A stretch of DNA of 64,000 nucleotides, taken from positions 32,001 through 96,000 of the forward strand of contig JBMFRC010000003.1 of NCBI GenBank assembly GCA_049968235.1, written 5' to 3'. The DNA comes from Candidatus Hydrogenedens sp. (GTDB taxonomy: Bacteria; Hydrogenedentota; Hydrogenedentia; Hydrogenedentales; Hydrogenedentaceae). The notes under the pieces were generated by a model. It had not been told where the DNA came from, searched no databases, and saw only the letters and a program-made list of their open reading frames with translations. Every line of letters begins with the position of its first letter. Position 1 is the stretch's first letter. Below are positions 26,696 to 47,092 of the stretch, in pieces. The translations under genes and the position numbers were made by a program.

Positions 26696-29128
26696 CTATT
26701 TTTGTGTAAGTTTTAAAGATGTTTTATATACATTAGTTATAGAGCAAAGAATCAAAGCGGTAATTGCCATATCAAACAAGGTATAACTAATACGGATTAG
26801 TGAAGTTAGTTGATTACCTTTACTTGCCATGATACCTCCACTAATAATTGCAATTACCAAGAAAAGTCCAGTAATCCATGAAAGTATTTTACTGTGGGCA
26901 TCTCTGTGTTGTGTAATTAAGAAGAATAGCGATACAAAGACAGGAAAAGCGGTAACATAAAAATGGTTTTTGTCGAACCAGAGCCTCTCAGGAATAACCC
27001 AAAAGGCAATATCAGGTTTGATGATTAAAATGAAGACACCGACTAAAATCAGTAAATACACGAGTGAAATCTGAAGAGATGTTAAGGCAAATTCGTTATG
27101 TGATGAACTTAGTTTATGTAATAGCCAAACTAAAGTAAAGAGAAATAGTAAAAATACAAGTTGATATTCAATGGGTTTTAATATTTGTTCTCGAAAGGCT
27201 GATAGGGTAACCATCCACCGACTTAAACCTAAACGAATATATTGTGGTTCGTAAACAGGTTTTCCATCCTTGCCAAAGGGATATTTAACGATATTTCTAA
27301 ACAACATACTTTGCGATGAAAAGGAATGACACTCAACGCAACCTTTTCTGCCGAGTGCTGATAAAGCCGGCGATACATCATGGTTATATTTATATACAGA
27401 AGCATATGGTGAAGACTCATACAAATCTTTGTTTATCCATTGGAATTCTGAACTATTAAAGTACATTCTATCATCGTTAACCCAAACTACCTTCTTATGA
27501 GCTAAATCATAACCTTTGCTTGTCAGCATATCTGTTACTGATTTAATAATCGCATCAATTTCTTCATCTCGATTTACCTCAGGGATGCCATCATTGTTAT
27601 CGTCTTTAATTTTTGCTAATTCAGGATATGCATTGGGGTCTTTCTGGTGAGTAACCCACATTTCATATACATCTTTCATCCGTGGTTGATGAAGTCCATT
27701 TTTACCCTTGGTGTAGATACCGGGCCAGGTACTATGCACAGGGTTAACAGGGAATATTTGTCCTTTATAGCGAGCATATTGTGGATAGAACAGGTCGGTT
27801 GGTTGGTCTTTTTCAGTAAATTGAGCCAGTTCTCCATAGTGATTCCAGTAATTCATATCTTGGTCATAAAAAGTCCAGACATACTTGGGTGGTGGTGTAA
27901 TTTTAGGACCTGGATTCAGCACATCACTTACTTGCACAAGTGCAGATTTTACTTTTCTTACAGGAATATGACAGGTTTGACAGGATAAACTTTCCATGTG
28001 AAATGGAGGCAACCATTCATGCCGGGCTATGGGCGCATTCATATATCCCTTAATGTGGCAATCGGTGCATTTCCGCATAGTGTTATCTAAATCATCGCGA
28101 ACAAAACCAGAAGGGTCGTCGCCTTTTCCAAACTGATGTTCTTCCTTCCCCTTAATTCGAGTATCTACTGCCATAGAACCAGCAGGATGACAATCAACGC
28201 ACTTTAATCCTTTTGCTATGTGTACATCTGTTAGCGGAGAAAAAGAGGCTCCTCGTTTTTTCCATTGAGGCTTAGAATGACAATTCAAACAATTTTCCAC
28301 TCTCGGTTCACGAACAAGATGAAGGGATACTTTCCCATCTTTATCAAATTTGGATATATCATATTGAATATTAATTTCCTCATTATCTTTTATAGAACCG
28401 TTTATCTTTGCTAAACCGCTTCCAATAGTTGCCATCCACTTAAAATTCCATTTTAAAAGATTTTCATTTCTTTCCTTGTAATCGTATTCAGGTAAATGAC
28501 ACATGTTGCAATCTGCCTCTGCAACGCCTGATTTTTTCCAGAAAGATTTATAGTAATCACCATCATAATTGTTTATCCCCCCATCCTCATAATTTGCTTT
28601 ATTCATATACTTATCATACCTGTTTCCTGTTCGGTCATATTCAAAAGGTCCACCCCCCGGATGACAGGTGCCACATCCATTAGCAAAAATGGTGAATGAA
28701 GTCATATCCATTTCTGTATCGGTTGTGTTTTCTTTTTTGGAAAGATAATTATAAAGGGGTGCTGGTGAACACCAATTACCCCCATAAAGACCGGGATATA
28801 ATACCCATTGGTATCGTTCTGCTAATTTATCCGTTACATTTTCATCTCTTCCCTGTTGGAAATGAAAACCTTTTGTTATCTTATCGTAATTATGACACTT
28901 CCCACAGGTCTGTTTTGTTGAATAAGGTTTGTCGGTATTAATATTATGAACAGGGTCAATCAGATTTCCATCTTCATCATATAAATAGAAAGGTGGACAT
29001 ACTCCTGACTGGGTAACTAAATCTCGTTTTATTGGGGGTATTCGTTCTTCATATTGATAATTAACCCGTGTAATATAACATGAAATCAATATTATCAAAA
29101 CAGTTAAAAAAAGATAACAAATTTTCAT
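26696..29128 (-). CDS. Multiheme c-type cytochrome (8 CxxCH motifs) fused to a C-terminal polytopic membrane domain
   Basis: CxxCH motifs CGKCH, CGTCH, CNMCH, CLNCH, CVDCH, CTDCH, CQTCH and CVECH. N-terminal signal anchor. The last ~200 aa contain about 5 predicted TM helices. Confidence 0.8.
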   Translation of the reverse strand: MKICYLFLTVLIILISCYITRVNYQYEERIPPIKRDLVTQSGVCPPFYLYDEDGNLIDPVHNINTDKPYSTKQTCGKCHNYDKITKGFHFQQGRDENVTDKLAERYQWVLYPGLYGGNWCSPAPLYNYLSKKENTTDTEMDMTSFTIFANGCGTCHPGGGPFEYDRTGNRYDKYMNKANYEDGGINNYDGDYYKSFWKKSGVAEADCNMCHLPEYDYKERNENLLKWNFKWMATIGSGLAKINGSIKDNEEINIQYDISKFDKDGKVSLHLVREPRVENCLNCHSKPQWKKRGASFSPLTDVHIAKGLKCVDCHPAGSMAVDTRIKGKEEHQFGKGDDPSGFVRDDLDNTMRKCTDCHIKGYMNAPIARHEWLPPFHMESLSCQTCHIPVRKVKSALVQVSDVLNPGPKITPPPKYVWTFYDQDMNYWNHYGELAQFTEKDQPTDLFYPQYARYKGQIFPVNPVHSTWPGIYTKGKNGLHQPRMKDVYEMWVTHQKDPNAYPELAKIKDDNNDGIPEVNRDEEIDAIIKSVTDMLTSKGYDLAHKKVVWVNDDRMYFNSSEFQWINKDLYESSPYASVYKYNHDVSPALSALGRKGCVECHSFSSQSMLFRNIVKYPFGKDGKPVYEPQYIRLGLSRWMVTLSAFREQILKPIEYQLVFLLFLFTLVWLLHKLSSSHNEFALTSLQISLVYLLILVGVFILIIKPDIAFWVIPERLWFDKNHFYVTAFPVFVSLFFLITQHRDAHSKILSWITGLFLVIAIISGGIMASKGNQLTSLIRISYTLFDMAITALILCSITNVYKTSLKLTQK

Positions 29129-29544: not shown

Positions 29545-31386
29545 CTATGCAATGTAAACATCTATGGGATTATATTTATTATGGAGGAATAGGGCATCGC
29601 GGAAGGTTCCCGTTTTTTGAAATTGTAGTTTCTCTATAAAAGAAATCAGTGGTATATCATTGGGATTTACATAAATAAGCCAGCGATTTTTGGGAAATCG
29701 GCTTTTGATTTGATTAAATAGAATCTGGAAGTTATCCTGAATATCTTTATTCATATAATCATCCGGGTTATGAAAATATATATACACTACGGATAGATTG
29801 GGGATTGTATGCATGTGTATTTTTATCAATCCACGAGGTTTCGTCTTTTTATCGATGATGACCCATTCTTCATATTCTCTGCTTGTATTTAAAATCTCCT
29901 GCTCTTTCTCATGCCTTGTGGTTGTTAAAATATTTCCCCATTGAAGTGTAAAATAGATATTGCTATTCCATGTTTCCCATTGAGCAAGCCAATCTTCATC
30001 TTGTGGTCGTAGAGGTCGGATAGAAATATGTTCTTTAAAGAAACTACGGAAAATATGTTTCAGGATAGATAATTTGCCGGGTTTTTGAACATCTCTATTT
30101 ATAGGCATATCTGCGAAAAGAGCAACCCCGGCATTGTTTAACTCCTGATAGCGGACAATTACTTCTTCTATCCATTTTCGTTGTGCTATACACCAGTCCT
30201 TTCTAGGTTCCGTTACTTTTCCTGTATATCGATAATGAATTGTTCCATGTCCACCTCCGCAGAAATTTTGAGCCCAGCAAGTAATACATGCAGGAGTTGT
30301 ATTAATCCCCAGACGATATAGACATTCTGCATCTTTCAGAGGGATTTCGTCCTTCCGTATATTTCCCATGTAGCAGAGGTTCTTTTTATAGTATAAATAT
30401 CCACCATACACATCGCCAGTAGATGTTATAAACCATTCTTGTATACCTGCGGGGTCTCTTCGTTTTGTAGGGATACCATGTTGAATGTTCTGAAACAACT
30501 GCATAATGGGTTCTAATATGTATCTGTTCCCTTTTTTTAATTGTTGTGTATATACGGCGGTTAGGTGTGTTAGTTCCTGGAAAAAGGTTCCAATATTCCT
30601 ATCCGGATTTAAGGCAAGGGGCGAAAATATGTCAATTAGTATTTTTTTTACATCATAATTAAAAACTTTTTCAATGGTTGGAGTAAAAGGTAATTCTTCG
30701 GGAAGGAAAAGAATGTGTCCGTTCTGACTATTTAGAAAATTATGGAACACTGATTCATTAATGGTTTCTATTTGTTGTACAAGTTCAGCGGAAATTTTCG
30801 GAAAGACTAAAAATAGTTTTCCCATATCCTCTATTTTCAATTTCGCACGGATATAATCCGACATAGGGAGATATAGATTTATAACCACATTTTTATCTCT
30901 ATTCGGGCACTGTTCATGAATGAATAAATTAAGTGTATTAAGAATATCCTGAATAGTTTCGTATTTTTGGTGAAGCCATAAATTTATCTGAAATTTTGGG
31001 TTTGCCTGAATGTAAGGTAATGCTTTTAATATTGCCAATGGAATTATCTTTTGAATGAGAGAGAAATTGGATTCATCTATCAAGAAGGAAAGTGTGTTGA
31101 GATGGAGAGTTTGGGTAAGAGATTGAACCCAATTCTCTATTTTTTGATATTTCAAAATAGAGCCAATTGAACGCAGGTATTCGAGTTCATCCCAGACTTC
31201 CCGTAGTTCTTTTTCCGTATATTGTGTAGATAGGATATTTTGTATTTTATGTTGTGTATTTTCTGGGTAGTATTGCAGGGTATCGTATGTAATTTTATCG
31301 CATTCAAAACAGAAAGTATCAAACACATCTACAGCAAAGAATCTTCCCTCTCGTTCAAAGGTATATATAGGTCTTATCTTGCTCAT
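29545..31386 (-). CDS. Radical-SAM-like/SPASM-domain protein with a degenerate SAM-cluster motif (putative peptide-maturation or scaffold protein)
   Basis: C-terminal region GDVYGGYLYYKKNLCYMGNIRKDEIPL...CITCWAQNFCGGGHG matches the SPASM pattern (G.VYPC...GNI...CxxCx5CxGGC). N-terminus RFFAVDVFDTFCFECDKITYDTLQYY resembles the pre-core region of peptide-modifying rSAMs. At the position where the rSAM motif L.L.ITE.CNL.C.YC is expected, the sequence is LSFLIDESNFSLIQ, with no CxxxCxxC. The C-terminal ~200 aa start IRPLRPQDEDWLAQW, which is GNAT-like. Confidence 0.55.
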   Translation of the reverse strand: MSKIRPIYTFEREGRFFAVDVFDTFCFECDKITYDTLQYYPENTQHKIQNILSTQYTEKELREVWDELEYLRSIGSILKYQKIENWVQSLTQTLHLNTLSFLIDESNFSLIQKIIPLAILKALPYIQANPKFQINLWLHQKYETIQDILNTLNLFIHEQCPNRDKNVVINLYLPMSDYIRAKLKIEDMGKLFLVFPKISAELVQQIETINESVFHNFLNSQNGHILFLPEELPFTPTIEKVFNYDVKKILIDIFSPLALNPDRNIGTFFQELTHLTAVYTQQLKKGNRYILEPIMQLFQNIQHGIPTKRRDPAGIQEWFITSTGDVYGGYLYYKKNLCYMGNIRKDEIPLKDAECLYRLGINTTPACITCWAQNFCGGGHGTIHYRYTGKVTEPRKDWCIAQRKWIEEVIVRYQELNNAGVALFADMPINRDVQKPGKLSILKHIFRSFFKEHISIRPLRPQDEDWLAQWETWNSNIYFTLQWGNILTTTRHEKEQEILNTSREYEEWVIIDKKTKPRGLIKIHMHTIPNLSVVYIYFHNPDDYMNKDIQDNFQILFNQIKSRFPKNRWLIYVNPNDIPLISFIEKLQFQKTGTFRDALFLHNKYNPIDVYIA

Positions 31387-32225
31387 TAATAAATCCCCAG
31401 CGTGCCTTTGTATCTACTATAGTTTTCCATTATCTTAAATAAAGAAATTCCGATAAAAGTCCAGATAATACAACTAGCACAAAGCCAATAGAAGCAGGGG
31501 TGTAAGAAAACGGACATAAATTGTCCCGGTGCCATTTGTTGACCTTTTACAAGCACATATTTTAAGCAGATAGAAGCGTCTGTGATAGGTAAAGCATGCA
31601 TAAAAGCAGATATAAACCAGCCCTGCTGTAAAAATTCTTCACGGGCAAAGATGGCTAATGCGAACAATGCCATTCGCACAATAATTGTCAGTTGTCCTAC
31701 TTGTTTAAATACGAGCACCAGTCCTCCTACCAAAAAACCAAATCCCAATAAATTGATAAAGGACAGGGTTAGTAGAACAACAACAGGGATAGGGTCAAAA
31801 TAAAGTTTTCCACCGACACTAATCACAACAAAATAAACCATAATAGCGGAATAAAGAATTGTTGTTACTGACGCAACCACGGCACGGGCAAGAAAATTCG
31901 TTACCAGACCATAAGGGCTCATACATAATTGTTCTAACACACCCGTTTGTGCCATACCCTGAATTCCCTGTGTGAACATGCCAATTACGCCGAAGGCAAA
32001 TAATCCGATAATAAAGCCCAGAATATAGTTTGTGGCACGTGTCGGGTCATCCAGTTGATTTATTCCCTTTTCGATTGCGGGCTGGCTATAAAAAAAACCA
32101 GCAATGAGTATCATGAGCATCCCATAGCCAATAATCAGTCCTGTTAATGTACGGAACCAGTAGCGTCGGGTGATAATCCATCCACGTATTATCTCTGCTT
32201 TCATAATGAGTAGAAAACCAAGCAT
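31386..32225 (-). CDS. ABC-2 type transporter permease
   Basis: About 6 TM helices in 279 aa. Sits directly downstream of an ABC ATPase and overlaps the next gene by 1 nt. Confidence 0.7.
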   Translation of the reverse strand: MLGFLLIMKAEIIRGWIITRRYWFRTLTGLIIGYGMLMILIAGFFYSQPAIEKGINQLDDPTRATNYILGFIIGLFAFGVIGMFTQGIQGMAQTGVLEQLCMSPYGLVTNFLARAVVASVTTILYSAIMVYFVVISVGGKLYFDPIPVVVLLTLSFINLLGFGFLVGGLVLVFKQVGQLTIIVRMALFALAIFAREEFLQQGWFISAFMHALPITDASICLKYVLVKGQQMAPGQFMSVFLHPCFYWLCASCIIWTFIGISLFKIMENYSRYKGTLGIY

Positions 32226-32229
32226 GATA

Positions 32230-33309
32230 TTATTCCTGTTCTTGTGAATTTATCGCATCAAATACGGGTTTTTCACCTGTAAGTTGTAAAAAGACATATT
32301 CCAGATTTACCTGTTTTTGTTGTATGGAGCGTAATTGATATTTTTTCCTACGAAGTGTTTCAAATAGAAGATATAATGCTTCTGACCGTTCTTCATACGG
32401 TTCCGGTACCTGCACCGTAATTGTAGGACCATCCGCCGTCAGGTCTGATTGGAGAAAAATAATCTGCGGACCAAGAGCATCGAGGTCCCCATCTGCCAGG
32501 TTACGGTCTAATCGCAGGGAAAAGATTTGTTTTGAAAATAGTTCCAGCAGTTCAGAAGTAGGTTTGCAGGTAATAAGTTTTCCCTTGTTAATAATTCCAA
32601 TACGATCACAGAGTTCTTGAGCCACATGCATATCATGAGTAGTAACCAGCACAGAACGACCATATTTTCGGGTCAGTTCCAGAATTTTGTCTTTAATGGA
32701 GCGACTGCTTTGCACATCCAGACCCGTAGTAGGTTCATCTAACAGAATAATTTTGGGGTCAGCAATCAGAGCGATGCATATCGCTAATTTTTGCTTCTGT
32801 CCTCGTGATAGTTTGCGAACTTCTATGTCTTTTTTGTCATTCAACCCGATAAAATCAAGTAGTTGATGGGCTCTTTCTTTGAGGATTTTTCCGCGAATAT
32901 TTCGCAAATTTCCATAATAATAAAGATTTTCAAGAGGTGTCAGGGGCCAGATACTGGTTCGTGTTCCTTCAAGCACAACGCCGATTTGTGAAAGGACCTG
33001 TTTCCGTTTCTTTTCTACATTCATCCCATCCACATAAACTGTTCCACTATCCGGTTTTACTAGTCCTGAAATCATTTTTACCGTGGTTGTTTTTCCAGCA
33101 CCATTGGGACCCAATAATCCCATAATTTCACCGGGCATAATACCAAAAGTAATTTTATCTGCTGCACATGCTTCTTTCTTTTTTATTAAACTCCTCTTAC
33201 CTGTTTCCTCGTCTTTATAAAGAAAGTGAGATGTGTGAAAGGTCTTTGATACCGCATCAAGATAAACCGTATATTTTTTTATATTTGTATTCAATTCATT
33301 TTTATACAT
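32230..33309 (-). CDS. ABC transporter ATP-binding protein
   Basis: Walker A GLLGPNGAGKTTT, ABC signature LSRGQKQKL, Walker B ILLDEPTTGLD. Confidence 0.9.
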   Translation of the reverse strand: MYKNELNTNIKKYTVYLDAVSKTFHTSHFLYKDEETGKRSLIKKKEACAADKITFGIMPGEIMGLLGPNGAGKTTTVKMISGLVKPDSGTVYVDGMNVEKKRKQVLSQIGVVLEGTRTSIWPLTPLENLYYYGNLRNIRGKILKERAHQLLDFIGLNDKKDIEVRKLSRGQKQKLAICIALIADPKIILLDEPTTGLDVQSSRSIKDKILELTRKYGRSVLVTTHDMHVAQELCDRIGIINKGKLITCKPTSELLELFSKQIFSLRLDRNLADGDLDALGPQIIFLQSDLTADGPTITVQVPEPYEERSEALYLLFETLRRKKYQLRSIQQKQVNLEYVFLQLTGEKPVFDAINSQEQE

Positions 33310-34007
33310 TATGAAACTCCACCTCCTTCAAATAATGTCCTTTCTAATTCGTCCATACATTTATCGGGGTCATTTATCTCCTGCAACTTGTCTAAATACT
33401 CAAGGTAATTGCTTTCCATATTACGAATGAAATGTAGAATTGTTACAAAACCCAGGTCATTTGTAACATGGTAAAGAATGCTTATGATAATAGAGAATAT
33501 CAAAAATTCGATGTTCTGGCGTAGTTGATTTTGAAAAATATGTTCATGCACCAATGTAAAAGTGAGGGATACGATAAGAATCGCAATAGCGGGACTTCCC
33601 ATTATCCCTATCAGAATAGGTTGGATTGTAGCCCGATAAATAATCTCCTCTGTAAGTGCAACTGTAAAAGTCTTTCCTAATAACACCGGCGAAAGAAATG
33701 AGAAACGGAACACCTGTAAAAAGGATAGAAATTGATTTTTTACAATAGAATTAAAGCCTACTGTAATAAGAAATCCGATGGTATATAAAATATGTCCCAA
33801 TACTAATCCCACTATCCAATTAGGCACGAAAAATAAATTTCTGGGGAGTATTTGCTGGATAAATAGATAAAAAATCGCACAAATAAGTAAAAGGGATTGA
33901 ATAATTTTTACAATTGTAGTTAATTTCTGAATCTGGAAAAAATTGCGACATAATTCCAGCAGGAAATTCAAGGAGAAGAGGACTACAAGAATTATTTTGA
34001 TATTCAC
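33309..34007 (-). CDS. CPBP-family intramembrane metalloprotease (CAAX protease/Abi-like)
   Basis: Polytopic membrane protein with motif 1 EEIIYR (EExxxR), FTLVH (FxxxH) and a YHVTND motif. GTG start overlaps the GNAT stop (GTGA). Confidence 0.65.
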   Translation of the reverse strand: MNIKIILVVLFSLNFLLELCRNFFQIQKLTTIVKIIQSLLLICAIFYLFIQQILPRNLFFVPNWIVGLVLGHILYTIGFLITVGFNSIVKNQFLSFLQVFRFSFLSPVLLGKTFTVALTEEIIYRATIQPILIGIMGSPAIAILIVSLTFTLVHEHIFQNQLRQNIEFLIFSIIISILYHVTNDLGFVTILHFIRNMESNYLEYLDKLQEINDPDKCMDELERTLFEGGGVS

Positions 34008-34624
34008 GAAGACTTCTCCAGATAATTCTTTATGCTTTCAGCCATTTTTTGTAGTGTAATTTCCCTTGTATGTTCGGTATTTTTTTCACGCCAGATTTGA
34101 AACTCCTGTTTTAATAATCCGTAAACATAAACATCATGCCAGACCCCGTTTCGTGTAATGTGTTCCTTTAGTGTGAGTTCTCGTTGGGCACCGAGAAATT
34201 CCAATAATTTCCATGATGGTTTATTGAAAGCATAAATAATAGCGGTAATGCGGTGTAAATTGAGTTCATCAAACGCATATTCCAATGCACGAAAAACATT
34301 AATTCCTGTCGTCAAATGATTCCGATGTTCCGGTGCTATATATACATCCAGATTGCAGGAACGATTCCGCCAGCTGATATTTTGTAGTGAAATCATTCCT
34401 AAAGGACCCTCCGGTGAATCAACGATGAAATATACACCAGCAGGGATAGGACTACCTGTATTTTTACTTAAAAACCCGATAATCTGTTCGCGAATAGTTC
34501 TTGGAGAACGGGCAGGGTCACCATACAGGAAGTATTGAAAATCTTCATCTTCCATCCAGCGGATAAGTGTGTCGAGGTCATCGCGGTCTGCTCTGCGGAT
34601 AAAAGATTTTGTAATAATACTCAC
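34004..34624 (-). CDS. GNAT-family N-acetyltransferase (RimL/RimJ-like)
   Basis: IRRADRDDLDTLIRWMED... N-terminus and GNAT fold length (206 aa). A paralogue lies upstream. Confidence 0.6.
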   Translation of the reverse strand: MSIITKSFIRRADRDDLDTLIRWMEDEDFQYFLYGDPARSPRTIREQIIGFLSKNTGSPIPAGVYFIVDSPEGPLGMISLQNISWRNRSCNLDVYIAPEHRNHLTTGINVFRALEYAFDELNLHRITAIIYAFNKPSWKLLEFLGAQRELTLKEHITRNGVWHDVYVYGLLKQEFQIWREKNTEHTREITLQKMAESIKNYLEKSS

Positions 34625-34637: not shown

Positions 34638-35183
34638 TTATTTCAATTCGACCGACAAAGTATTACTATTTTGAAATTTTGCCCATGTCTCAAGATTATG
34701 CCATTTCCCACAGGTGAATAGCACCTCTCGCATACATCCTTCACATTGATATGAATGATTTAATAGAAAGTTTCGCAGTCTTTCTTCCACATCCAGACAG
34801 GTTGTCATTAATTTTCTTAAATGGAGTTGTTGAAATGCCCGCACCTCAATAAATTCTAATGCTTCACCAATCAGAGCGGATTCATTATCGTAGGTCTCAT
34901 TTTCAAACAGGAGCATCATCTCCCCAAAAAGTGCCTCCGCATTTATCCCTTTTAGGATAACAAAGCCGGAAATATCTCCAATTTTATTTTCAACAGCATA
35001 AAAGGACTGAGCAGTATCTTTATGTTGAAGAAGTTCCTCCAACTCACTTAGATTGGGCATGAGCGGTTCTCGTTTCGTATCCAGCAGGGTGGCAAAGATG
35101 GGTTTGTGCAGGTAAAAACGGAGCAGTTCTTTTGCATCAAAACGGTCCGCATTGCGAATAGTCGCATAAGTCTTTTTTATCAT
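34638..35183 (-). CDS. GNAT-like acetyltransferase paralogue
   Basis: IRNADRFDAKELLRFYLHK... parallels the adjacent GNAT N-terminus. 181 aa. Confidence 0.45.
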   Translation of the reverse strand: MIKKTYATIRNADRFDAKELLRFYLHKPIFATLLDTKREPLMPNLSELEELLQHKDTAQSFYAVENKIGDISGFVILKGINAEALFGEMMLLFENETYDNESALIGEALEFIEVRAFQQLHLRKLMTTCLDVEERLRNFLLNHSYQCEGCMREVLFTCGKWHNLETWAKFQNSNTLSVELK

Positions 35184-35219
35184 ATAGAAAGGTTATATCC
35201 CGCAGTTAAAATTACACGC

Positions 35220-35247
35220 TTCCATGCCCTAAAATGGCATGAAGACA
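35220..35247 (-). promoter_or_regulatory. Intercistronic stem-loop between the small-peptide genes and the downstream enzyme genes (possible attenuator or processing site)
   Basis: Imperfect inverted repeat TCCATGCCC-taaaat-GGCATGAAG on the plus strand. It lies between the stop of the last small ORF and the GNAT start. Confidence 0.35.
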
Positions 35248-35280
35248 ACTGAAAAAATCCCTGCTTATAATAACGAAAAG

Positions 35281-35400
35281 TTAAAAGCCAATTTCGTTTT
35301 TCTTTTCGTAGCGGAAATCCTGCCAGGCTCGCCACACCGCATTAAAAAAGTTTGTAAAGGCATCAGCTTTCCGTAATGTCAACTTTTGAATGTGCTTCAT
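35281..35400 (-). CDS. Small peptide E (39 aa from MKHIQKLTL...; alternative start 35415)
   Basis: Minus-strand ORF MKHIQKLTLRKADAFTNFFNAVWRAWQDFRYEKKNEIGF. Shares the MKHI+K/R N-terminus with the neighbouring small ORFs. Not in the ORF track (under 60 aa). Confidence 0.45.
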   Translation of the reverse strand: MKHIQKLTLRKADAFTNFFNAVWRAWQDFRYEKKNEIGF

Positions 35401-35451
35401 GTTCTTATTTCCCATATTACAAGTTTTAGGTGTTAATATATAAAAATTTAT

Positions 35452-35652
35452 TTAACTGCTTGAAGAGGTTGTTGTAGTAGTTGTTGTCCCGGTGCTCGGC
35501 AATGGAGACTCCGGGTCCTTATTCTTGAAAACAGGAATAAAAATTTTTATTATATCTTCAATAAATTTTATTATATTAACTGTGGTATAGGGGAAATCAC
35601 TCGCGGATAGGGGTTGAGTTATCTTCTGAATATGTATCTTATTACGCACCAT
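35452..35652 (-). CDS. Small peptide D (66 aa), Ser/Thr-rich C-terminus
   Basis: MVRNKIHIQKITQPLSAS...PSTGTTTTTTTSSSS. SD GGAAG upstream of the ATG at 35652. Overlaps the end of peptide A in another frame. Confidence 0.45.
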   Translation of the reverse strand: MVRNKIHIQKITQPLSASDFPYTTVNIIKFIEDIIKIFIPVFKNKDPESPLPSTGTTTTTTTSSSS

Positions 35653-35809
35653 ACTTCCCACTTCCGTCCAATGTTGAGGTATCTTCTGTATTTCTCGTTT
35701 CGAGTAAAGTTCGAACTGCTGTCAATATCTGAAGAAAAATTGTCAAAATAACATCAATCGTAACCGCTTGAACAGGTCTACTGTATGTCTGTCTTTTAAT
35801 ATGTTTCAT
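35642..35809 (-). CDS. Small peptide A (55 aa)
   Basis: MKHIKRQTYSRPVQAVTIDVILTIFLQILTAVRTLLETRNTEDTSTLDGSGKYGA. Its N-terminus and hydrophobic core (ILTIFLQILTAV) are paralogous to peptide B (ILTLIANILSVV). Not in the ORF track. Confidence 0.55.
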   Translation of the reverse strand: MKHIKRQTYSRPVQAVTIDVILTIFLQILTAVRTLLETRNTEDTSTLDGSGKYGA

Positions 35810-35884
35810 AAAAATACCTTTAAACTATAAATCTATTATACTAAATATAAAGTATTTTACAAACTACAAAGATTCTGTATCTTA

Positions 35885-36070
35885 CTAACTGGTCGTAGTA
35901 TTTGTTGTTTCCTGAGGTTTTTTTACTTCCGCTAAAGGCAAGAAGAAATTTGTAAGCACAGAAAGCAAAAAACAAAGAAATGCCTGATAATCACTTGTGA
36001 TATTTGTGCAAAAGTTAGAACTTTGCTGTGCCCTTGATGGTTTAACAGTGATACATTGGATTCTCTTCAT
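35885..36070 (-). CDS. Small peptide C (61 aa)
   Basis: MKRIQCITVKPSRAQQSSNFCTNITSDYQAFLCFLLSVLTNFFLPLAEVKKPQETTNTTTS. Strong SD AAGGAG 9 nt upstream. The only member with Cys (3). Confidence 0.55.
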   Translation of the reverse strand: MKRIQCITVKPSRAQQSSNFCTNITSDYQAFLCFLLSVLTNFFLPLAEVKKPQETTNTTTS

Positions 36071-36094
36071 TATTTCTATCTCCTTTTATTTAGA

Positions 36095-36250
36095 CTACGA
36101 AGAAGAGGAGGTGCCTCCTTCTTTAGCGACAAAAGCCTGAGCGACGACAGATAAAATATTCGCAATCAGGGTTAATATCTGTCCAATACTCAAAGTTGTC
36201 TCTATTTGTGCTTTGTGTAATGTGGCGGTTAATCTTCTTATATGTTTCAT
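36095..36250 (-). CDS. Small peptide B (51 aa)
   Basis: MKHIRRLTATLHKAQIETTLSIGQILTLIANILSVVAQAFVAKEGGTSSSS. SD GGGAG 8 nt upstream. Not in the ORF track. Incompatible with the overlapping 71-aa track ORF 36123..36338, which is considered spurious. Confidence 0.55.
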   Translation of the reverse strand: MKHIRRLTATLHKAQIETTLSIGQILTLIANILSVVAQAFVAKEGGTSSSS

Positions 36251-36475
36251 TTTCCAACTCCCGTATATTGGTTATAATATTATCTAATATAGAATATTGT
36301 TTACATTCTATTTCATTACAGATTTCTTTTAATATCATATATTAATTTAATACCAAATTACATAAAAAAGTTTTCCCTTTCCACCTCATAATAACACGGA
36401 ATTATAAGATATATTTTACAAAATAAGAAGCAATATAGGAAATATTTAACAGAATTTAAGTATATCAATAACTTT

Positions 36476-39046
36476 TTATTTCTTTAATCGAGCACTGCTC
36501 ATCATAAATAACAATATACCGATAAATATAAAATCAAACAGATATTTCAATAAGGAATTGTTGTTTAAGGATTTGTTTATACAGCCACAAACATTTGTTG
36601 CTCCAGTTTCTTCCTTACTGATATTTCCATCACCATTCGTATCTATTTGATTAAATATTTCATGGGTTAACCATGGATACACAATACTTAACTCATCCCA
36701 ACTTAACATATTATCGCCGTTCGCATCAAACAATGAAAACCGTTTCTTGAGTATATTCTTTAATTCCTTTAATGTCATTGGACATGTACCCGCAGAAACC
36801 GTAATATTAACTACTGATTCCGGCTCTACCTGAGTTCCTGCGGGTGGATATTGAGTTATGACATTGCCTGTAGCTATGTCATTACTACACTCCTGGGTAA
36901 CATCCCCAACCTTCAGGTTTGCAGATTTTATAACATTTTTTGCAGAATCCTGGTTCATACCAACTACATCCGGAACCACATTTAATCCGACATACTGAGA
37001 CACTAATTGTGGATAAGATTTATTTTCTTTTATATACCATACTTTTTCAAAATCCCAACCATTAAAAGTGGCTTGCTGTTTCATTTTTGCCGTTGTTTTA
37101 CCCGTGCCACCTGCAGAATTTTTTTGTCCGGAAGTCTCTGTGTCCCAATATGAATTACTTACCGTACCGGAATGGTTATATCCCAAAAGCCCCCCAATAT
37201 ACGAAGCCCCGGAAGAATTGGACACAGAACCTGCTGAATAACAATAATTTATTGTGCCTCTATAATTTCCACCTACCAGTCCACCACTGTATAGAACTCC
37301 TGAAACAGACCCTATGGCATAACAGTTGCTAATTTCATTATTATTCTCACCTACCAGACCACCAACATTTATATGTCCCTGAGTTGTAACCTCCGCACAA
37401 CAACTACTTGCCTTACCCGAATTTGAACCTATTGCCCCACCAATAGAACTATATCCTGTTACAGACCCCTCTGCATGACAACCACTTACTGTACCATAAT
37501 TCTGACCTGCTAATATGCCTATAGAAGAAATATTCGTATCCCCGGAAACAGAACCTTTTGCATGGCAATTACTCACAGTACCATAATTTCGTCCTATTAA
37601 TATACCGACGGAAGTGGAAGTAACAGAAAGAGTATTTGTATGTCCTGATACGGAACCTTCTACATAACAATTACTTACTGTGCCATAATTTTGTCCTGCC
37701 AATATACCCACGAAAGAAGAACCCGCGACAATAGCATTTTCTATACTTAAATTTTTAACCACACCTTTCATATCAATATAGCCAAAGAAACCAACATAGT
37801 TTTCAGAAGGACGATTTATCGTTAGACCAACTATTTTATGCCCTTTACCATCAAAATTGCCTTTGAATGGATGCTCTTTATCTGCCCCTATAGGAGGCAA
37901 ATCTATTCCTGCAACATTAATATCATTAATTAATTCATAATCGCCATTCAAAGGATAAATGTCCCCTATCTTTTGCAATTCCCCGACATTATCTACAAGG
38001 ATAGTCCCCGGATTAATATTTCGCAGGAAAGGATATTGATATGGATAGGAATACACATCACTGCTGACATAGATTCTCCAAACTGTTTCAAAATCCCAGC
38101 CCACATAAGTGTTCTTTAATTTCATTTCTTCCGCTGTTTTCCCTGTTCCCCCATCAGAAGCACTCTGTCCGGATGCTATTATGTCCCAGTAACAATTACT
38201 AACATAGCCACTTTCTTTCTTTGCAATAAGCCCGCCTGTTATATGTTCTTCCGTTGAAGTCGCTGTTGACCGAACAGTTCCTCGACAATAACAATTAGTT
38301 ACACCATTTTCATTGCTGTTATTGTAGCCAATAAGTCCCGCAACATAATTCTTCCCTGTAATAGAACTTGAACTGTAACTATTATCAACAGAGCCTATAT
38401 TTTCACCTATCAATCCGCCAACACGATTTATTCCTGTTATAGATGCAAGATTATAACACTGACTTACTGTTCCCAAATTTTGACCCGTAATACCGCCAAC
38501 ATAATCCGTTCCTTTTACCGTTCCGCTGTTAACACAACTCTGTAATACTACACCGAAATTCCGACCGACAATCCCACCAACATTTGAATTACCTTTAATT
38601 GATATATTTTCTAAACGGAGATTATGGACTTTCCCACCAGCATCAACATATCCAAATAATCCAATATCATCCTCATCTCCCCGCGATATAACAAGACCTT
38701 TTATCTTATATCCTTTGCCATTAAAATCACCTGTAAAAGGACTATTAAATGTTCCTATGGGTTTAAACCCCGCTTTATCATTCCAGGTCGATGTGCTACT
38801 TGCGTCAATATCTTCTGTCAATTCATATTCCGCACTTAACGGGTAATTTGCATCATTACCTATTTTCTGTAATTCCTCAATACTGTTTATCTGGATTACA
38901 GTTGCACCATAACTGTTTCCGAAATAGAAACTCATGCAAAAAATAAAAAATAAACAAAAGGGGAAATATATGGTCTTTTTTGAAAAACTTCGATTATTCA
39001 TCAAACAGCTCCTTGTTATTAATAAAATTACATGCAATAAACGCAA
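36476..39046 (-). CDS. Large surface protein with two blocks of GLUG-motif repeats, a PASTA-like domain, a dockerin/EF-hand-like Ca-binding pair and a C-terminal hydrophobic anchor
   Basis: Repeated VGG(I/L)(V/I)GxNxGx(V/I) units (GGIVGRNFGVV, VGGITGQNLGTV, VGGLIGENIGSV, VAGLIGYN...; a second block GILAGQNYGTV, GILIGRNYGTV, GGLVGEN...). PASTA-like VVPDVVGMNQDSAKNVIKSANLKVGDV. DANGDNMLSWDEL and DTNGDGNISKEE. N-terminal signal; C-terminal TM plus KK tail. Confidence 0.6.
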   Translation of the reverse strand: MRLLHVILLITRSCLMNNRSFSKKTIYFPFCLFFIFCMSFYFGNSYGATVIQINSIEELQKIGNDANYPLSAEYELTEDIDASSTSTWNDKAGFKPIGTFNSPFTGDFNGKGYKIKGLVISRGDEDDIGLFGYVDAGGKVHNLRLENISIKGNSNVGGIVGRNFGVVLQSCVNSGTVKGTDYVGGITGQNLGTVSQCYNLASITGINRVGGLIGENIGSVDNSYSSSSITGKNYVAGLIGYNNSNENGVTNCYCRGTVRSTATSTEEHITGGLIAKKESGYVSNCYWDIIASGQSASDGGTGKTAEEMKLKNTYVGWDFETVWRIYVSSDVYSYPYQYPFLRNINPGTILVDNVGELQKIGDIYPLNGDYELINDINVAGIDLPPIGADKEHPFKGNFDGKGHKIVGLTINRPSENYVGFFGYIDMKGVVKNLSIENAIVAGSSFVGILAGQNYGTVSNCYVEGSVSGHTNTLSVTSTSVGILIGRNYGTVSNCHAKGSVSGDTNISSIGILAGQNYGTVSGCHAEGSVTGYSSIGGAIGSNSGKASSCCAEVTTQGHINVGGLVGENNNEISNCYAIGSVSGVLYSGGLVGGNYRGTINYCYSAGSVSNSSGASYIGGLLGYNHSGTVSNSYWDTETSGQKNSAGGTGKTTAKMKQQATFNGWDFEKVWYIKENKSYPQLVSQYVGLNVVPDVVGMNQDSAKNVIKSANLKVGDVTQECSNDIATGNVITQYPPAGTQVEPESVVNITVSAGTCPMTLKELKNILKKRFSLFDANGDNMLSWDELSIVYPWLTHEIFNQIDTNGDGNISKEETGATNVCGCINKSLNNNSLLKYLFDFIFIGILLFMMSSARLKK

Positions 39047-40620: not shown

Positions 40621-42987
40621 ATGTTTTTCCACCGTCATTGGGTAATTATCTGTGTAGGGTTTGTATGTGGTGCTTTCTTTGCCAAAATACAATGGATAAC
40701 ATGGGCGTTATTACCTGTTATTATCAGTATCATTGTCATTTTTCTTTTAATAAATTATCAGAAGAGAATACGATATGCAGAAAATATCGGGATTTTTCTG
40801 TTTTCCTTCATTATTGGTTCGTTATCTTATTTATTACACCCCTATCCTCAGGAAGGGGATGATTTTTTCGTATGGTTGAGACAGCAACAACCTAATATAT
40901 ATGTTGAAGTTGAAGGATATGTAACAGAAAATACGCTTTTTGACCCTATCAATAAACAAATTCGCTTTGTGATTAATATCTCAAAGGTAAAAGAAAAAAA
41001 TACATGGAAAAATATAAAGGGGAAAGCCCTTGTTTTATACAAAGATGCTCAATCTCCCATCTATACACATACCCGGCTTCGGTTATCCGGGAAAACTTCT
41101 CTATATTTAAGTCCAGTAAATGAAATATTAAGTGATTATGAAACCTATCTTCGTTCCCATAGAATTTATTCATTAATTTTTGTATATGCACCGCAAATAC
41201 AAACAATACATACTTACACATTTTCTCCATTTTATCACATATCCCGATTGCAACAATATTTTTATGAACGAATAATTCAATATACACCTACTTCCATCAG
41301 GGATATGACAAGAGCTATTTGGTTGGGAGACCGAAGTGGTCTGGATTATAAGGAAGAACAGAACTTTATGCTCACAGGAACCATACATATCATTGCTATT
41401 TCAGGACTGCATATCGGTCTGGTATTCTGGTTTACTCAGGTTGCGATACGGGCAATTTTCAAAACAAGGAGGCGATTGGCAGATATACCTGCCCTATTGT
41501 TATGTGTTTTTTATGCACTGATAAGTGGTGCTCATGGCTCTTCTTTGAGAGCAATCCTTATGCTGTTAATTTATGAGTTGTATGTGTTTAGTAGAAGAAA
41601 TGCGGATATTCTAACAACTCTTTCTATAACAGCAACACTACTTTTTCTCTGGAGCACAGATCTCATCTGGGATATAGGGACAGAAATGTCCATATTAGCA
41701 GTTGTTTCCATCATATTATTCAACGAACCCATCTCAAAACTATTACGCATCTTCCCATGGACAATCCGTTCCTATTTTTCGGCGATTATATCTGCACAGA
41801 TACTTTTACTGCCTTTACTTATTACAATAAACTCACAAATAAATGCTTTAAACCCTGTATATAATCTTTTTGTTGTTCCGTCAATTACACTTTATTTAAT
41901 GACCAGCATTTGTGGATTGGCTTTTATTTTTATTCCATTTTTACCGACTTTATTTTTCTACGCAAGTGGAGTATTTTTAATCTTCATTCAATCGTTATGT
42001 AAATGGGGTAGTTCTTTTTCCTATACTTTGTTTGCCATTCCCCATCTATCCTATTTCGGAATCTTCCTTTACTTTATCCTTTGCATGTTCCTTTATCGCT
42101 GGCTTATTAAACAAAAACGAAAAGAGTTTTTGATATTCATTGCAGGATGTGTCGTGTTATTCTTTTTCTGGAGGGGTATCCCGTTTTATAGAGAAACGAC
42201 TGTGCATATACTCGATGTAGGACATGGTGATGCTATACTTATCTCAACCGCAGAGAAAGAGAATATCCTTGTGGACGGGGGAACCCCATTTATGGGAGAA
42301 CGAGTTGTGCTTCCTTTTCTGTTTGCAAAAGGAATACGGACATTGGATTATGTCATCGCAACACATGCAGACGAAGACCATATAGGGGGGCTATTTAACG
42401 TTATAGACAAACTGCGTGTTCGACATTTTATTTATGGTGAAGGGTTTTTAAACACCGAACCCGGTAGTAAGATTATAAAAAAAGCCATGTCCCGCGGTAT
42501 TAACCTTATAAAAACTGAAAAAGGACAACAAATAAAATTGAGAAAGAGTTTTTTAAATGTTCTTTATGCGGGTAGAACTTACTACAATGAGACCAACGAA
42601 AATTCACTTGTCTTGAAATTTGTAAATTATCGTTTTTCCATATTGCTAACAGGGGATTTTCCTGCCCACTTGACAAATAAGGAACTTGCCTCTGCCGATT
42701 GTTCTACAACAATCATAAAAATAGCCCATCATGGTTTGAAGAATTCACTAAATCAGGATTTATTGGAGAAATCACACCCCGAGATTGCCGTTGTCTCTGT
42801 TAATGAATTCCAACGCAATTGGGGTGTGCGGAAGGAAATTAAAGACCTGCTACAACAATACCAAATTCCACTCTGGCGAACAGATTACTATGGAGGAATT
42901 ATTATACGAACGGATGGGAACAAAATAAATCTCTATGGGGCAAGACAGAAAAAAGGATACCTTCTCAGAAAAGAAACTTGTTTTTAA
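40621..42987 (+). CDS. comEC: DNA internalisation competence protein ComEC/Rec2 (with C-terminal metallo-beta-lactamase domain)
   Basis: Polytopic competence domain, then HILDVGHGDAILIS...ATHADEDHIGG MBL motifs. 788 aa. Confidence 0.8.
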   Translation: MFFHRHWVIICVGFVCGAFFAKIQWITWALLPVIISIIVIFLLINYQKRIRYAENIGIFLFSFIIGSLSYLLHPYPQEGDDFFVWLRQQQPNIYVEVEGYVTENTLFDPINKQIRFVINISKVKEKNTWKNIKGKALVLYKDAQSPIYTHTRLRLSGKTSLYLSPVNEILSDYETYLRSHRIYSLIFVYAPQIQTIHTYTFSPFYHISRLQQYFYERIIQYTPTSIRDMTRAIWLGDRSGLDYKEEQNFMLTGTIHIIAISGLHIGLVFWFTQVAIRAIFKTRRRLADIPALLLCVFYALISGAHGSSLRAILMLLIYELYVFSRRNADILTTLSITATLLFLWSTDLIWDIGTEMSILAVVSIILFNEPISKLLRIFPWTIRSYFSAIISAQILLLPLLITINSQINALNPVYNLFVVPSITLYLMTSICGLAFIFIPFLPTLFFYASGVFLIFIQSLCKWGSSFSYTLFAIPHLSYFGIFLYFILCMFLYRWLIKQKRKEFLIFIAGCVVLFFFWRGIPFYRETTVHILDVGHGDAILISTAEKENILVDGGTPFMGERVVLPFLFAKGIRTLDYVIATHADEDHIGGLFNVIDKLRVRHFIYGEGFLNTEPGSKIIKKAMSRGINLIKTEKGQQIKLRKSFLNVLYAGRTYYNETNENSLVLKFVNYRFSILLTGDFPAHLTNKELASADCSTTIIKIAHHGLKNSLNQDLLEKSHPEIAVVSVNEFQRNWGVRKEIKDLLQQYQIPLWRTDYYGGIIIRTDGNKINLYGARQKKGYLLRKETCF

Positions 42988-43072
42988 TACACTTCGTATT
43001 CAAAAACTTATTATTCAAACATAACTCTTCTTTTTTCCCTACCTATTTCTTTATTACAAACTGTCCCATAGT

Positions 43073-43423
43073 CTAATCATTCTTTGCATCATATTTCTTT
43101 TCCAAAAATTTGTTTTTAAAATAAATCAAAGACAAAATGGGATGATACAAGAACATTCTGGGTCCGGAAAACCGCATTACTGTTTTAATACGCTCTTTAT
43201 GTTTCTTATCATAACAGTGGATATGGCAATTCTTGCAGGTAGGTTTATCTGGCATGAGAGGACATTTCTCAATACGTTTATAAGCATACTCTAAAAGTTC
43301 ATGGCACTCTCCACACACAGGATTTATATGATGAAACTTGCAATAAATTTCTATCATGCTTTTGATAGTTTTTTTCTCAAACTTTTCTCTACGAAGGTTC
43401 TTTCTATTTTCTTTTTTTCTCAT
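43073..43423 (-). CDS. Nitrous-oxide-stimulated-promoter (YgbA-like) family cysteine-rich protein
   Basis: IKSMIEIYCKFHH...CGECHELLEYAYKRIEKCPL...KPTCKNCHIHCY...RFSGPRM matches the YgbA family pattern. Confidence 0.55.
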   Translation of the reverse strand: MRKKENRKNLRREKFEKKTIKSMIEIYCKFHHINPVCGECHELLEYAYKRIEKCPLMPDKPTCKNCHIHCYDKKHKERIKTVMRFSGPRMFLYHPILSLIYFKNKFLEKKYDAKND

Positions 43424-43453
43424 TAGGGGTTAGTCCTTCCTTTTTATCGAGCC

Positions 43454-43470
43454 TGTCAGACCTGTCGGAG
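43454..43470. repeat. Dispersed intergenic motif, copy 2
   Basis: TGTCAGACCTGTCGGAG, lying between the M48 stop and the ygbA-like start. Confidence 0.4.
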
Positions 43471-43471
43471 G

Positions 43472-44848: not shown

Positions 44849-44878
44849 CGTTGAATTTTATATCCTTGAGTGGTGTTA

Positions 44879-45439: not shown

Positions 45440-45534
45440 AGTTCGTTTCTCCTATTTATGGTCTAAAATCTATAACAGACCGTTTTGTTAATAGTAACAT
45501 AGTTAACAACATAAGCAAAAAAATAGAGGTGTTC

Positions 45535-45560
45535 TGTCGGATTTGTCGGATTCGTCTGAG
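45535..45560. repeat. Dispersed intergenic motif, copy 3 (three tandem 9-mers)
   Basis: TGTCGGATTTGTCGGATTCGTCTGAG in the lemA/cydA divergent intergenic region. Confidence 0.45.
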
Positions 45561-45729
45561 TTATTTAAATTTAAAAGAATAAAATAACTCTTACTCTTGT
45601 TCCTCTTTATGTATAAAAGAAATTTTCACCAATTCCTTCCGTGAGGGTTGGATAATTGATAGAAACGAAACAATATAAATATTATAATGGTAAAATAAGT
45701 AATGCAATAATATACAGGAGTATTTATCT

Positions 45730-47067: not shown

Positions 47068-47092
47068 ACTTCAATAAGCAGAGGAGTTTTTT

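Follow-up and report, generated by a model that had tools for sequence, protein, structure and literature searches.

The closest described counterpart of the locus considered here is SCIFF, a system of peptides made on ribosomes and then modified post-translationally (RiPPs) from Firmicutes, in which a precursor (CteA/ScfA; PF13165, TIGR03973) is paired with the maturase CteB/ScfB (TIGR03974; PDB 5wgg). In their co-crystal, the leader of CteA is bound by CteB as a β-strand, between helix α3 and strand β3 of the RiPP recognition element (RRE), and SCIFF occurs lineage-wide in Clostridia (review PMC8326336). Here, we describe a system of Hydrogenedentota that is likewise lineage-wide and not sporadic, as it appears in a 64,000-nucleotide stretch of DNA from Candidatus Hydrogenedens sp. 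(contig JBMFRC010000003.1, positions 32,001 to 96,000; hereafter the window, the numbering of which is used throughout). It consists of an array of five small minus-strand genes for peptides that we call B, C, A, D and E in reading order, and of six minus-strand genes downstream of the array, which code for two GNAT proteins, a CPBP protease, an ABC ATPase, a permease and a fusion protein:

36095-36250, minus strand, peptide B, 51 aa (annotated as ACP5UA_03050, hypothetical protein)
35885-36070, minus strand, peptide C, 61 aa
35642-35809, minus strand, peptide A, 55 aa
35452-35652, minus strand, peptide D, 66 aa counted from its ATG
35281-35400, minus strand, peptide E, 39 aa, the last peptide gene ahead of the enzyme genes
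34638-35183, minus strand, GNAT1, 181 aa, RimL-like acetyltransferase fold (Pfam PF13420, 1.4e-6)
34004-34624, minus strand, GNAT2, 206 aa, amine N-acetyltransferase type (Pfam PF13302, 4e-16)
33309-34007, minus strand, CPBP (Rce1-like) glutamic intramembrane protease (PF02517, 6.9e-11)
32230-33309, minus strand, ABC transporter ATP-binding protein of DrrA type (PF00005, 4.5e-31)
31386-32225, minus strand, polytopic membrane protein of 279 aa with ~6 hydrophobic segments, the presumed permease of the ABC ATPase
29545-31386, minus strand, fusion protein of 613 aa, comprising an RRE, a degenerate radical-SAM barrel, a partial SPASM domain and a GNAT domain

The system resembles SCIFF in that its peptides share the start MKHI(K/R)x(L/I)(T/N/S) and its fusion protein is homologous to CteB over the RRE, the barrel and the SPASM domain. 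In contrast, the six-Cys C-terminal motif of the SCIFF peptides (GGCGECQTSCQSACKTSC) is not found in the array peptides, which are mostly Cys-free, and the fusion protein lacks the CxxxCxxC triad as well as three SPASM Cys out of seven and carries a fused GNAT domain. Further, SCIFF has one precursor, whereas one to six distinct ones are found here along with two extra GNATs, a CPBP protease and an ABC transporter. Given the missing six-Cys core, the missing radical-SAM triad and scores short of the model cut-offs, the system is not a member of SCIFF or of the ranthipeptides; to judge from the sequences, it may descend from the SCIFF system, or mimic it, in its leader and RRE.

Other described systems share different parts of its organization. 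The epipeptide operon yydFGHIJ of Bacillus subtilis codes for a peptide, a radical-SAM enzyme, a membrane protease and an ABC transporter. Its operon logic recurs here, with one or more peptide genes, a protein of the radical-SAM family, a membrane-bound protease and an ABC exporter of two components, but the radical-SAM homologue is apparently dead and GNAT-fused, the peptides are multiple and there are additional GNATs. Abi/CPBP immunity genes and ABC transporters are also features of class II multi-peptide bacteriocin loci and of the export of phenol-soluble modulins (PSMs) by Pmt. The class II loci are comparable in having tandem genes for helical peptides ahead of genes for a CPBP/Abi membrane protein and for a transporter of DrrA/ABC-2 type. 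They differ from the present system, which displays non-cationic cores, no double-glycine (GG) site, a separate permease without a peptidase domain, fixed synteny, an RRE-bearing scaffold and three GNAT domains.

In the selidamides, GNAT maturases such as KspN acylate Lys or Orn side chains of leader-bearing precursors (PMC8784127, PMC13647313). There, as here, GNAT-superfamily proteins adjoin leader-bearing peptides, and the recurrent core Lys of the array peptides (113/139) would be a plausible acceptor; however, the array peptides are not of the Nif11 or proteusin type, and the present system has three GNAT domains, one of them on a seemingly dead radical-SAM scaffold. The nearest relatives of these GNATs are SpeG, YdaF, RimJ and RimL, and the likeness to selidamides holds at the level of the GNAT superfamily. 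Lastly, AgrD loses its N-terminal leader to the CPBP/CAAX-type protease MroQ (PMC12312760; bioRxiv 10.1101/516906). AgrD/MroQ shares with our system a small three-part precursor (leader, functional middle and polar C-terminal tail), processing at the membrane and a protease of the CPBP family. It differs in that neither an AgrB homologue nor a thiolactone-forming Cys is present here, in that CPBP cleavage is only presumed for the array peptides, and in that their hydrophobic or amphipathic segment is the conserved core rather than the leader.

Targeted full-text literature searching returned no description of a system that combines this peptide array with this cassette. It looks like an undescribed peptide maturation/export system that follows RiPP logic with an unprecedented enzyme set around a pseudo-radical-SAM scaffold. 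By a slight balance of probability, we favor the reading that a RiPP-like system uses the peptides as its substrates: an RRE scaffold that is radical-SAM-dead would offer them up to acylation by GNATs, cleavage by the CPBP protease and export by the ABC transporter. As in RiPP clusters generally, the candidate precursors adjoin tailoring enzymes and display a leader/core organization. In the mechanism that we propose, the leader would dock as a β-strand on the RRE of the CteB-like fusion protein which, having lost radical-SAM chemistry, would act as a substrate-presenting scaffold. The fused GNAT and/or the two stand-alone GNATs would N-acylate the peptides, either on the conserved helix-end Lys or on the new N-terminus formed once the leader is removed, these being the candidate acyl acceptors. 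The CPBP intramembrane protease may trim the leader and/or the tail at the membrane, and the DrrA-type ABC system may export the products or place them in the envelope.

The five open reading frames (ORFs) are confirmed as real genes under strong purifying selection. Reading of the strand over 35000-36600 and the ORF listing recovered all five minus-strand ORFs that an initial annotation of this DNA had placed at 35281-36250, and its observations on their layout held as well: the start of D overlaps the stop end of A by 11 nt, A and B are near-identical at their 5' ends (89% identity over 18 nt), and Shine–Dalgarno-like GGGAG and AAGGAG are legible before B and C, respectively. The number of peptides shorter than 60 aa, given there as four, is in fact three, with C having 61 and D 66 residues. 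The same annotation had four of the ORFs as missed by the ORF track supplied with the DNA; NCBI annotates B, C, A and D as hypothetical proteins (ACP5UA_03050 to 03035), and E alone is uncalled in the source metagenome-assembled genome (MAG). The exact sequence of peptide E is absent from the protein collection. Its conserved start is the MKHI codon at 35400; an upstream ATG at 35415 is missing in several orthologues. In the six-frame translation of the 64-kb window, the motif HI[KRQ][KR][LIQ]T was counted four times, where shuffles predict 0.03, and all four occurrences are at ORF N-termini on one strand of the same 1-kb stretch.

As reference loci we used eight contigs (L001-L008) encoding homologues that are 79% to 36% identical to the 613-aa fusion protein. 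All eight contain the same five small frames, in unchanged order, directly upstream of the same six genes, and alignments of the window with these loci place each of the five peptides in an orthologue group of its own. Pairwise Nei–Gojobori estimates, with synonymous sites ranging from 0.3 to saturation, gave ratios of non-synonymous to synonymous substitution (dN/dS) of 0.006-0.37 across the five frames. The strongest constraint is on E (0.006-0.04), the nearly invariant and most conserved member; the values of the others are 0.04-0.21 for B (the core invariant among the orthologues in eight loci), 0.05-0.09 for C (13 C-type orthologues phylum-wide), 0.18-0.37 for A and 0.08-0.20 for D. Thus, retention of the frames in related genomes, the loss of which had been set beforehand as the observation that would overturn the call, was seen in eight loci together with purifying selection. 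The array is AT-rich (32-35% GC), and such sequence commonly yields small ORFs; one might thus ask whether these are chance open frames, or whether the conservation belongs to the other strand, another frame or an RNA. The conservation is, however, frame-specific across nine loci (proportions of non-synonymous differences 0.01-0.36 vs 0.29-0.94 for synonymous ones), the orthologous peptides persist in genomes of 58-68% GC, and independent gene callers also predicted array peptides. Since the frames are conserved with low dN/dS in related loci, we regard these explanations as excluded, with a probability that is practically nil.

We then catalogued 139 unique peptides from 49 loci. Their common leader has the logo M-K-H-[ILV]-[RK]-x-[IVL]-[ST]-x-x-P-x-[KR]-A and forms a cationic segment of ~14-16 residues, with a net charge of +3 to +4 in the N-terminal motif. 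A variable linker follows the motif and closes with P-x-[KR]-A-x-[DEQ], the junction in the E-type being [KR]-A-D-A. Some E-type members have 10-20 additional residues between the MKH motif and the ADA junction, and the leader is therefore bipartite. Beyond it lies either a transmembrane (TM)-like helix, as in the cores of B, C and A (mean hydrophobicity ~0.7), or a strongly amphipathic one, as in D and E (hydrophobic moment 0.64-0.69; 0.69 in D). The core is followed by K-[EDNK] in 113 of the 139 peptides vs 38 expected from shuffled tails, and then by a polar tail with a median of 7 residues (range 2-34), in which Thr, Glu, Ser, Asn, Gly and Pro abound. There is no Cys in B, A, D and E, whereas C has three. 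The parts of the five peptides from the window are as follows:

Peptide B: leader MKHIRRLTATLHKAQ; TM-like core GQILTLIANILSVVAQAFVA; K-E; Ser/Thr tail
Peptide C: leader MKRIQCITVKPSRAQ; core FC.N..SDYQAFLCFLL.VL..FFLPLAE.KKPQ with two invariant Cys; Thr-rich tail
Peptide A: leader MKHIKRQTYSRPVQA; core VTIDVILTIFLQILTAVRTLL; polar tail; a full-length paralogue of B
Peptide D: N-terminally extended leader MVRNK-IHIQKIT; strongly amphipathic core NIIKFIEDIIKIFIPVFKNKDPE; Pro/Thr/Ser tail
Peptide E: leader MKHIQKLTLRKADA; aromatic amphipathic helix FTNFFNAVWRAWQDFRYEKKNE

Two array-derived sequences, ADAFTNFFNAVWR and AWQDFR, are usable as search targets in proteomic data.

Profile–profile similarity between the orthologue groups is confined to the leader, except for the pair B-A, which hhalign aligns with 93.8% probability over 45 columns (core-only P = 3.8e-4). 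The array therefore presents one leader on several distinct cores and not one repeated core. This bears out the proposal that these tightly packed small genes are united as a family by a common N-terminus and revises several of its details. The shared core [IL]LT-[LI]-x3-ILS/T-[VA]V, which the initial annotation had extended to most of the family, stands for B-A only, as leader-trimmed hhalign detected no relation between the other cores; a single core common to all five was rejected on these grounds, with the exception of that pair. Peptide D, rated there as a weaker member, is a full one: its orthologues carry xHIxKI[TS] behind an extension of 3-7 residues, and D-type peptides of other lineages begin directly with M[KR]R[LIM][KR]x[LI][ST]. 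Ser/Thr-rich C-termini are present in B, C and D, weak in A and lacking in E. The suggestion of a RiPP precursor family is retained in its leader/core plan and its linkage to enzymes, but not in the variable cores and the focus of modification on Ser/Thr. Each core type is strongly conserved among orthologues, almost invariantly so in E, while the Ser/Thr-rich ends are the least conserved segments and the locus has no dehydratase or glycosyltransferase. Pfam and NCBIfam searches with the peptides returned no family match, even at E≤10; weak matches to EhbP, Erp_C, BacL2 and PabC were dismissed as chance.

In one of its two readings, the initial annotation had taken the common N-terminus for a leader, and this accords with its resemblance to the leader of SCIFF, the maturase of which, CteB, is the closest solved homologue of the fusion protein. 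For comparison we used real SCIFF sequences (PF13165, 'six-cysteine ranthipeptide SCIFF'), thousands of which were retrieved; these precursors start with MKH[IV]KTL[NST]T. A log-odds matrix, built from positions 2-8 of 70 real SCIFF leaders only, was used to score the window's 900 ATG ORFs with a length of 25 aa or more, among which B ranked 1st, E 2nd, A 3rd and C 5th. A search of the PDB for the CteA leader chain with peptide B and a 21-column leader profile gave no usable match. On the side of the fusion protein, its structural model and alignment locate strand β3 at residues 26-29, with an invariant CFEC, and helix α3 at residues 58-73, with invariant E60, E63, V64, E67, L68 and L71; the invariant residues thus fall on the same two elements that hold the CteA leader in CteB. 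In this model, the acidic surface of α3 would face the +3/+4 leader. The match to the SCIFF leader and the invariant residues on β3 and α3 thus point to the shared N-terminus as a putative recognition leader for the RRE of the fusion protein, which is the best-supported step of the mechanism.

The domains of the fusion protein are an RRE (~residues 1-80), the degenerate barrel, a partial SPASM domain with C367, C370, C376 and C399, and a GNAT domain (~450-613). The family profile matches CteB (5wgg) with E = 1e-38 over residues 3-406 and RimL-type acetyltransferases with 4e-4 over residues 515-611. An AlphaFold2 (AF2) model, with a predicted local distance difference test score (pLDDT) of 75.6, shows the RRE topology of β1 to β3 followed by α1 to α3, and Foldseek with this model retrieved 5wgg_A as the best match (2.8e-13), then TigE, and then GNATs for the C-terminal domain. 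The NCBIfam models for SPASM, SCIFF-maturase, PapB and QhpD gave sub-threshold matches only, TIGR03974 scoring 52.5 bits vs a cut-off of 425. The radical-SAM motif of CteB, HDCNLRCKYC, aligns to LSFLIDES, and in a genome scan CxxxCxxC was found in the first 300 residues of none of the 76 fusion-family ORFs. A role of the SPASM protein as a working radical-SAM enzyme is therefore not supported, the triad being absent from every member examined. In the same set, FC[FL]EC[DE] is kept in 74 of the 76 and CxxCxxxxxC in all 76; the only invariant Cys are C26, C29, C367, C370, C376 and C399, a pattern that would be compatible with one remaining auxiliary cluster. Identity to far relatives is highest in the RRE (0.42), followed by the SPASM domain (0.32) and the GNAT domain (0.26), and lowest in the former catalytic barrel (0.15). 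From these domain identities and the missing Cys triad, the fusion protein is predicted to be a radical-SAM-dead CteB homologue, with its peptide-binding RRE under the strongest constraint and fused to an acyltransferase fold.

Some features of this protein stand apart. Strand β3 of the RRE (product residues 25-30) reads as an invariant FCFECD, including C26 and C29, where CteB has AVHVVD; a metal- or disulfide-mediated contact between these scaffold Cys and the two invariant Cys of the C-type peptide is conceivable. The fusion ORFs in L011 and L016-L095 range from 599 to 1245 residues, these lengths being stop-to-stop spans that may overestimate the true ones. One of them (L011:11985-14033) has an insertion of ~43 residues rich in Ala, Pro and Arg within the degenerate barrel, consistent with relaxed constraint on that domain.

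Among the other cassette proteins, GNAT2 is the best conserved of the three GNAT domains; its PDB matches include 8fv0 (1.4e-11) and 1nsl (4.4e-10), and its nearest relatives are SpeG, YdaF, AAC(6') and RimJ. GNAT1 has only a weak match to RimL (1s7k/1z9u, E ~0.04). The CPBP protein is a polytopic membrane protein with ~5 hydrophobic segments and, in its translation, the catalytic motifs of its family, intact as EExxxR (EEIIYR), FxxxH (FTLVH) and HxxxN (HFIRN). The ABC ATPase scores 2e-71 with the drrA model TIGR01188, which is under the model cut-off. The permease has no Pfam, NCBIfam or PDB match, and its single-sequence AF2 model was unusable (pLDDT 53.5). It is 64-66% identical to its counterparts in L009-L011, where the fusion protein is only ~25% identical, and is in its own right an unusually constrained, unclassified membrane protein.

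The order peptide E, GNAT1, GNAT2, CPBP, ATPase, permease, fusion protein is identical in eight distant loci, in which the fusion protein is 25-36% identical to that of the window. In these loci identity to the window is 45-92% for peptide E, 57-74% for the ATPase, 44-82% for the permease, 49-64% for GNAT2, 33-50% for GNAT1 and 30-44% for the CPBP protein. The predicted association of the peptides with SPASM, GNAT and CPBP genes was observed in the window and ~49 other loci, where the array lies directly upstream of the cassette. The flanks outside this block differ between loci, which limits the conserved unit to the six genes and the peptides.

To assess the distribution of the system, species-representative genomes were scanned with the fusion-family alignment and 80 loci were kept. 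At least 191 species genomes encode a relative of the fusion protein, and 57 of the 80 kept loci are labelled Hydrogenedentota, Hydrogenedentes, Hydrogenedentales or Hydrogenedens. In 44 of the 52 loci with enough upstream sequence, one to five leader-type small ORFs directly precede GNAT1; across lineages, the number of peptides ranges from 1 to 6. Of the 49 peptide-bearing loci, 42 contain an E-type peptide, and in 38 of the 39 with multiple peptides the E-type gene is the last of the peptide genes. An exhaustive profile search of 1.84 billion representatives recovered the E-type as 49 clusters at 50% identity, all of them free-standing peptides of 35-87 aa. A subclade of higher GC (L009, L010, L043, L068 and L083) has the complete cassette immediately after yidC-jag-mnmE (e.g., L010:4220-9866). 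We also observed cassettes in 13 MAGs labelled Nitrospirales/Nitrospiraceae (co-assembly MAGs), in one labelled Bathyarchaeia and in one labelled Robiginitomaculum (together L019, L021, L025, L029, L035, L038, L039, L040, L051, L054, L057, L058, L064, L066 and L080). Since L019 is closely related to the Hydrogenedens loci, these labels probably reflect mis-assignment or mis-binning and not spread beyond the phylum.

A number of observations weigh against the reading of the peptides as substrates of a RiPP-like system. The likeness to the SCIFF leader spans only ~8 residues and is lost once positions 9-12 are added, and the SCIFF models PF13165/TIGR03973 match none of the peptides. The cores are conserved and not hypervariable, and five fixed core types would fit structural or functional small proteins equally well. 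The candidate acceptor is not universal: peptide A of the window has an Arg in place of the Lys of K-[EDNK], and the copy in L007 has none there. In the fused GNAT, the QGQGI of the RimL acetyl-CoA loop (Q/R-x-x-G-x-G/A) aligns to ENKDI, and by eye the loop is atypical in GNAT1 and GNAT2 too; some of the GNAT domains may therefore be non-catalytic. The transporter and peptide E are far better conserved than the putative modifying enzymes, and a function centered on transport fits as well. The jag-mnmE subclade has no leader-type peptide gene within 7-8 kb of the cassette, and no convincing small ORFs were seen by the cassette in L032, L035, L051 and L087; in the former, the peptide genes might lie at another site, or the cassette might function in their absence. 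Finally, docking of the leader on the RRE, acylation and the residue that it affects, the positions of cleavage, export of the products and their biological role are inferred and not shown.

Several of these points would be accounted for if the five products were unmodified small membrane or amphipathic proteins acting in a membrane complex, for example, as subunits of the ABC transporter. The basic N-terminus would then be a mere topology or targeting signal, and the targets of the GNAT, CPBP and fusion proteins would lie elsewhere or be the complex itself. The strong conservation of each core type as its own orthologue group, with E nearly invariant, agrees with this, as does the fact that no components are better conserved than the ATPase, the permease and peptide E. 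The TM-like B, C and A with the amphipathic D and E would make a plausible hetero-oligomeric helix bundle, the cassette is retained without adjacent peptides in one subclade, and inheritance across the phylum is vertical and housekeeping-like. However, this explanation leaves unaccounted for both the SCIFF-leader match and the status of the RRE as the most conserved domain of the fusion protein. Nor do the peptides have the layout of signal anchors, as their hydrophobic segment lies ~20 residues past the basic N-terminus and behind a polar linker with P-x-[KR]-A, and their linkers and tails of variable length resemble leader and follower segments. We therefore consider this alternative unlikely, though the strongest among those that do without a RiPP-like system. 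The initial annotation had also raised a bacteriocin- or toxin-like role. The array would then be a multi-peptide bacteriocin, cytolysin or PSM-like toxin locus, with the CPBP (Abi) protein and the ABC transporter serving export and self-immunity and the GNATs detoxifying by acetylation in the manner of MccE/RimL. Tandem small genes for amphipathic or hydrophobic helices, the adjacent CPBP/Abi gene and DrrA-type transporter, and a peptide number that varies from 1 to 6 between lineages would all be expected of such a locus. Yet gene order and orthologous peptide types are kept across at least 191 species genomes, whereas bacteriocins are typically patchy and strain-specific; the cores past the leader have a net charge of -2 to +1 and are not cationic; and E is under extreme purifying selection (dN/dS ~0.01-0.04), with no diversifying selection seen. 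Further, there is no double-glycine leader or C39-peptidase transporter, and the cassette of one subclade sits beside jag and mnmE, which are housekeeping genes. Fixed phylum-wide order, neutral to anionic cores and very strong selection thus disfavor a toxin role, which we judge to be distinctly improbable.

The homology of the fusion protein to CteB over its full length, the sub-threshold matches to SCIFF, PapB and QhpD maturases, and the two invariant Cys of the C-type peptides could further be read as signs of a genuine ranthipeptide/sactipeptide (thioether) pathway, with the SPASM protein installing radical-SAM cross-links. Against this stand the loss of CxxxCxxC in 76 of 76 members, a barrel that is the least conserved domain, a SPASM domain with only four invariant Cys, the wide gap between the TIGR03974 score and its cut-off, and the Cys-free B, A, D and E. 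These leave a thioether pathway with scarcely any probability. The RiPP-like reading with a radical-SAM-dead scaffold, which accommodates both the leader match and the constrained RRE, is the one that we continue to prefer.

With regard to the biological role of the system, one in envelope, membrane or signalling physiology is more likely than one in warfare because of its vertical conservation across the phylum. More tentatively, it is possible, if rather doubtful in all its particulars, that the ancestor of Hydrogenedentota reshaped a RiPP system of SCIFF type, with a dead maturase plus GNAT scaffold now serving a fixed set of up to five or six different acylated, CPBP-clipped helical peptides that are handed to the ABC system and constitute a conserved hetero-oligomeric component of the membrane or envelope, or a signal, in core physiology. 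If so, the system would count as a new class of RiPP, built around a pseudo-enzyme and with a housekeeping instead of an antibiotic role. If the favored reading is true, the system would be a natural case of a radical-SAM RiPP maturase turned into a dead leader-binding scaffold and rewired to acyl transfer by GNATs. This bears on the evolution of RiPP pathways and on RRE-based genome mining, which normally takes the SPASM protein to be the catalyst. The short leader and the RRE could also be a portable recognition pair for peptide engineering. The peptides themselves form an unnamed family of 139 members without a Pfam or NCBIfam model, linked to a six-gene cassette in at least 191 species genomes, mostly labelled as the uncultured phylum Hydrogenedentota. 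As with SCIFF in Clostridia, their lineage-wide conservation points to a physiological and not an antibiotic function, and the function of SCIFF-like peptides could thus be addressed in another, independent system.

Two non-coding features accompany the array:

36251-36475, minus strand, AT-rich upstream region (~24% GC) with sigma-70-like hexamers
35221-35243, minus strand, 8-bp stem-loop between peptide E and GNAT1

The first is the probable promoter region of the array, with minus-strand matches at 36468-36441 and 36332-36305 that are predicted from the promoter consensus only. The stem of the second is kept in the window and in L001-L004 through one-sided G-U changes, with zero double compensation, and is absent from L007 and L008. 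It might be an attenuator that sets the peptide-to-enzyme stoichiometry or a hairpin that stabilizes the mRNA.

Directly upstream of the array in the window lies a gene for an 856-aa protein (36476-39046, minus strand) that combines GLUG repeats and a PASTA domain with a pair of EF-hands and a hydrophobic anchor at the C-terminus; among the relatives examined, it is found only in the closest, L001, and thus falls outside the conserved unit. In L002-L008 (~1800-2950), the position ahead of the array is taken by a conserved gene pair for proteins of 73-78 aa and ~290 aa without a Pfam match, which was rejected as a component of the system because it is absent from the window and L001. Most Hydrogenedens-like loci (L002-L008, ~1-1700) also have a divergent pair coding for a Cep192_D4-like protein of ~360 aa and a TM7S3/TM198 protein, which the window lacks. 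The gene for an 810-aa multihaem c-type cytochrome with several CXXCH motifs and MtrC/NrfB-like Pfam matches follows in the window just downstream of the cassette (26696-29128, minus strand); the C-terminal part of the translated protein seems strongly hydrophobic and is possibly a multi-helix membrane domain. The ordinary surrounding genes at 25478-26587 (plus strand) and 40621-48097, for which no link to the array was seen, were named from their translations alone and include those for an aldo/keto reductase with a Cys-rich C-terminal region, a 788-aa ComEC-like protein, a LemA-like protein with an HtpX-like membrane protease next to it, and subunits resembling those of cytochrome bd oxidase.

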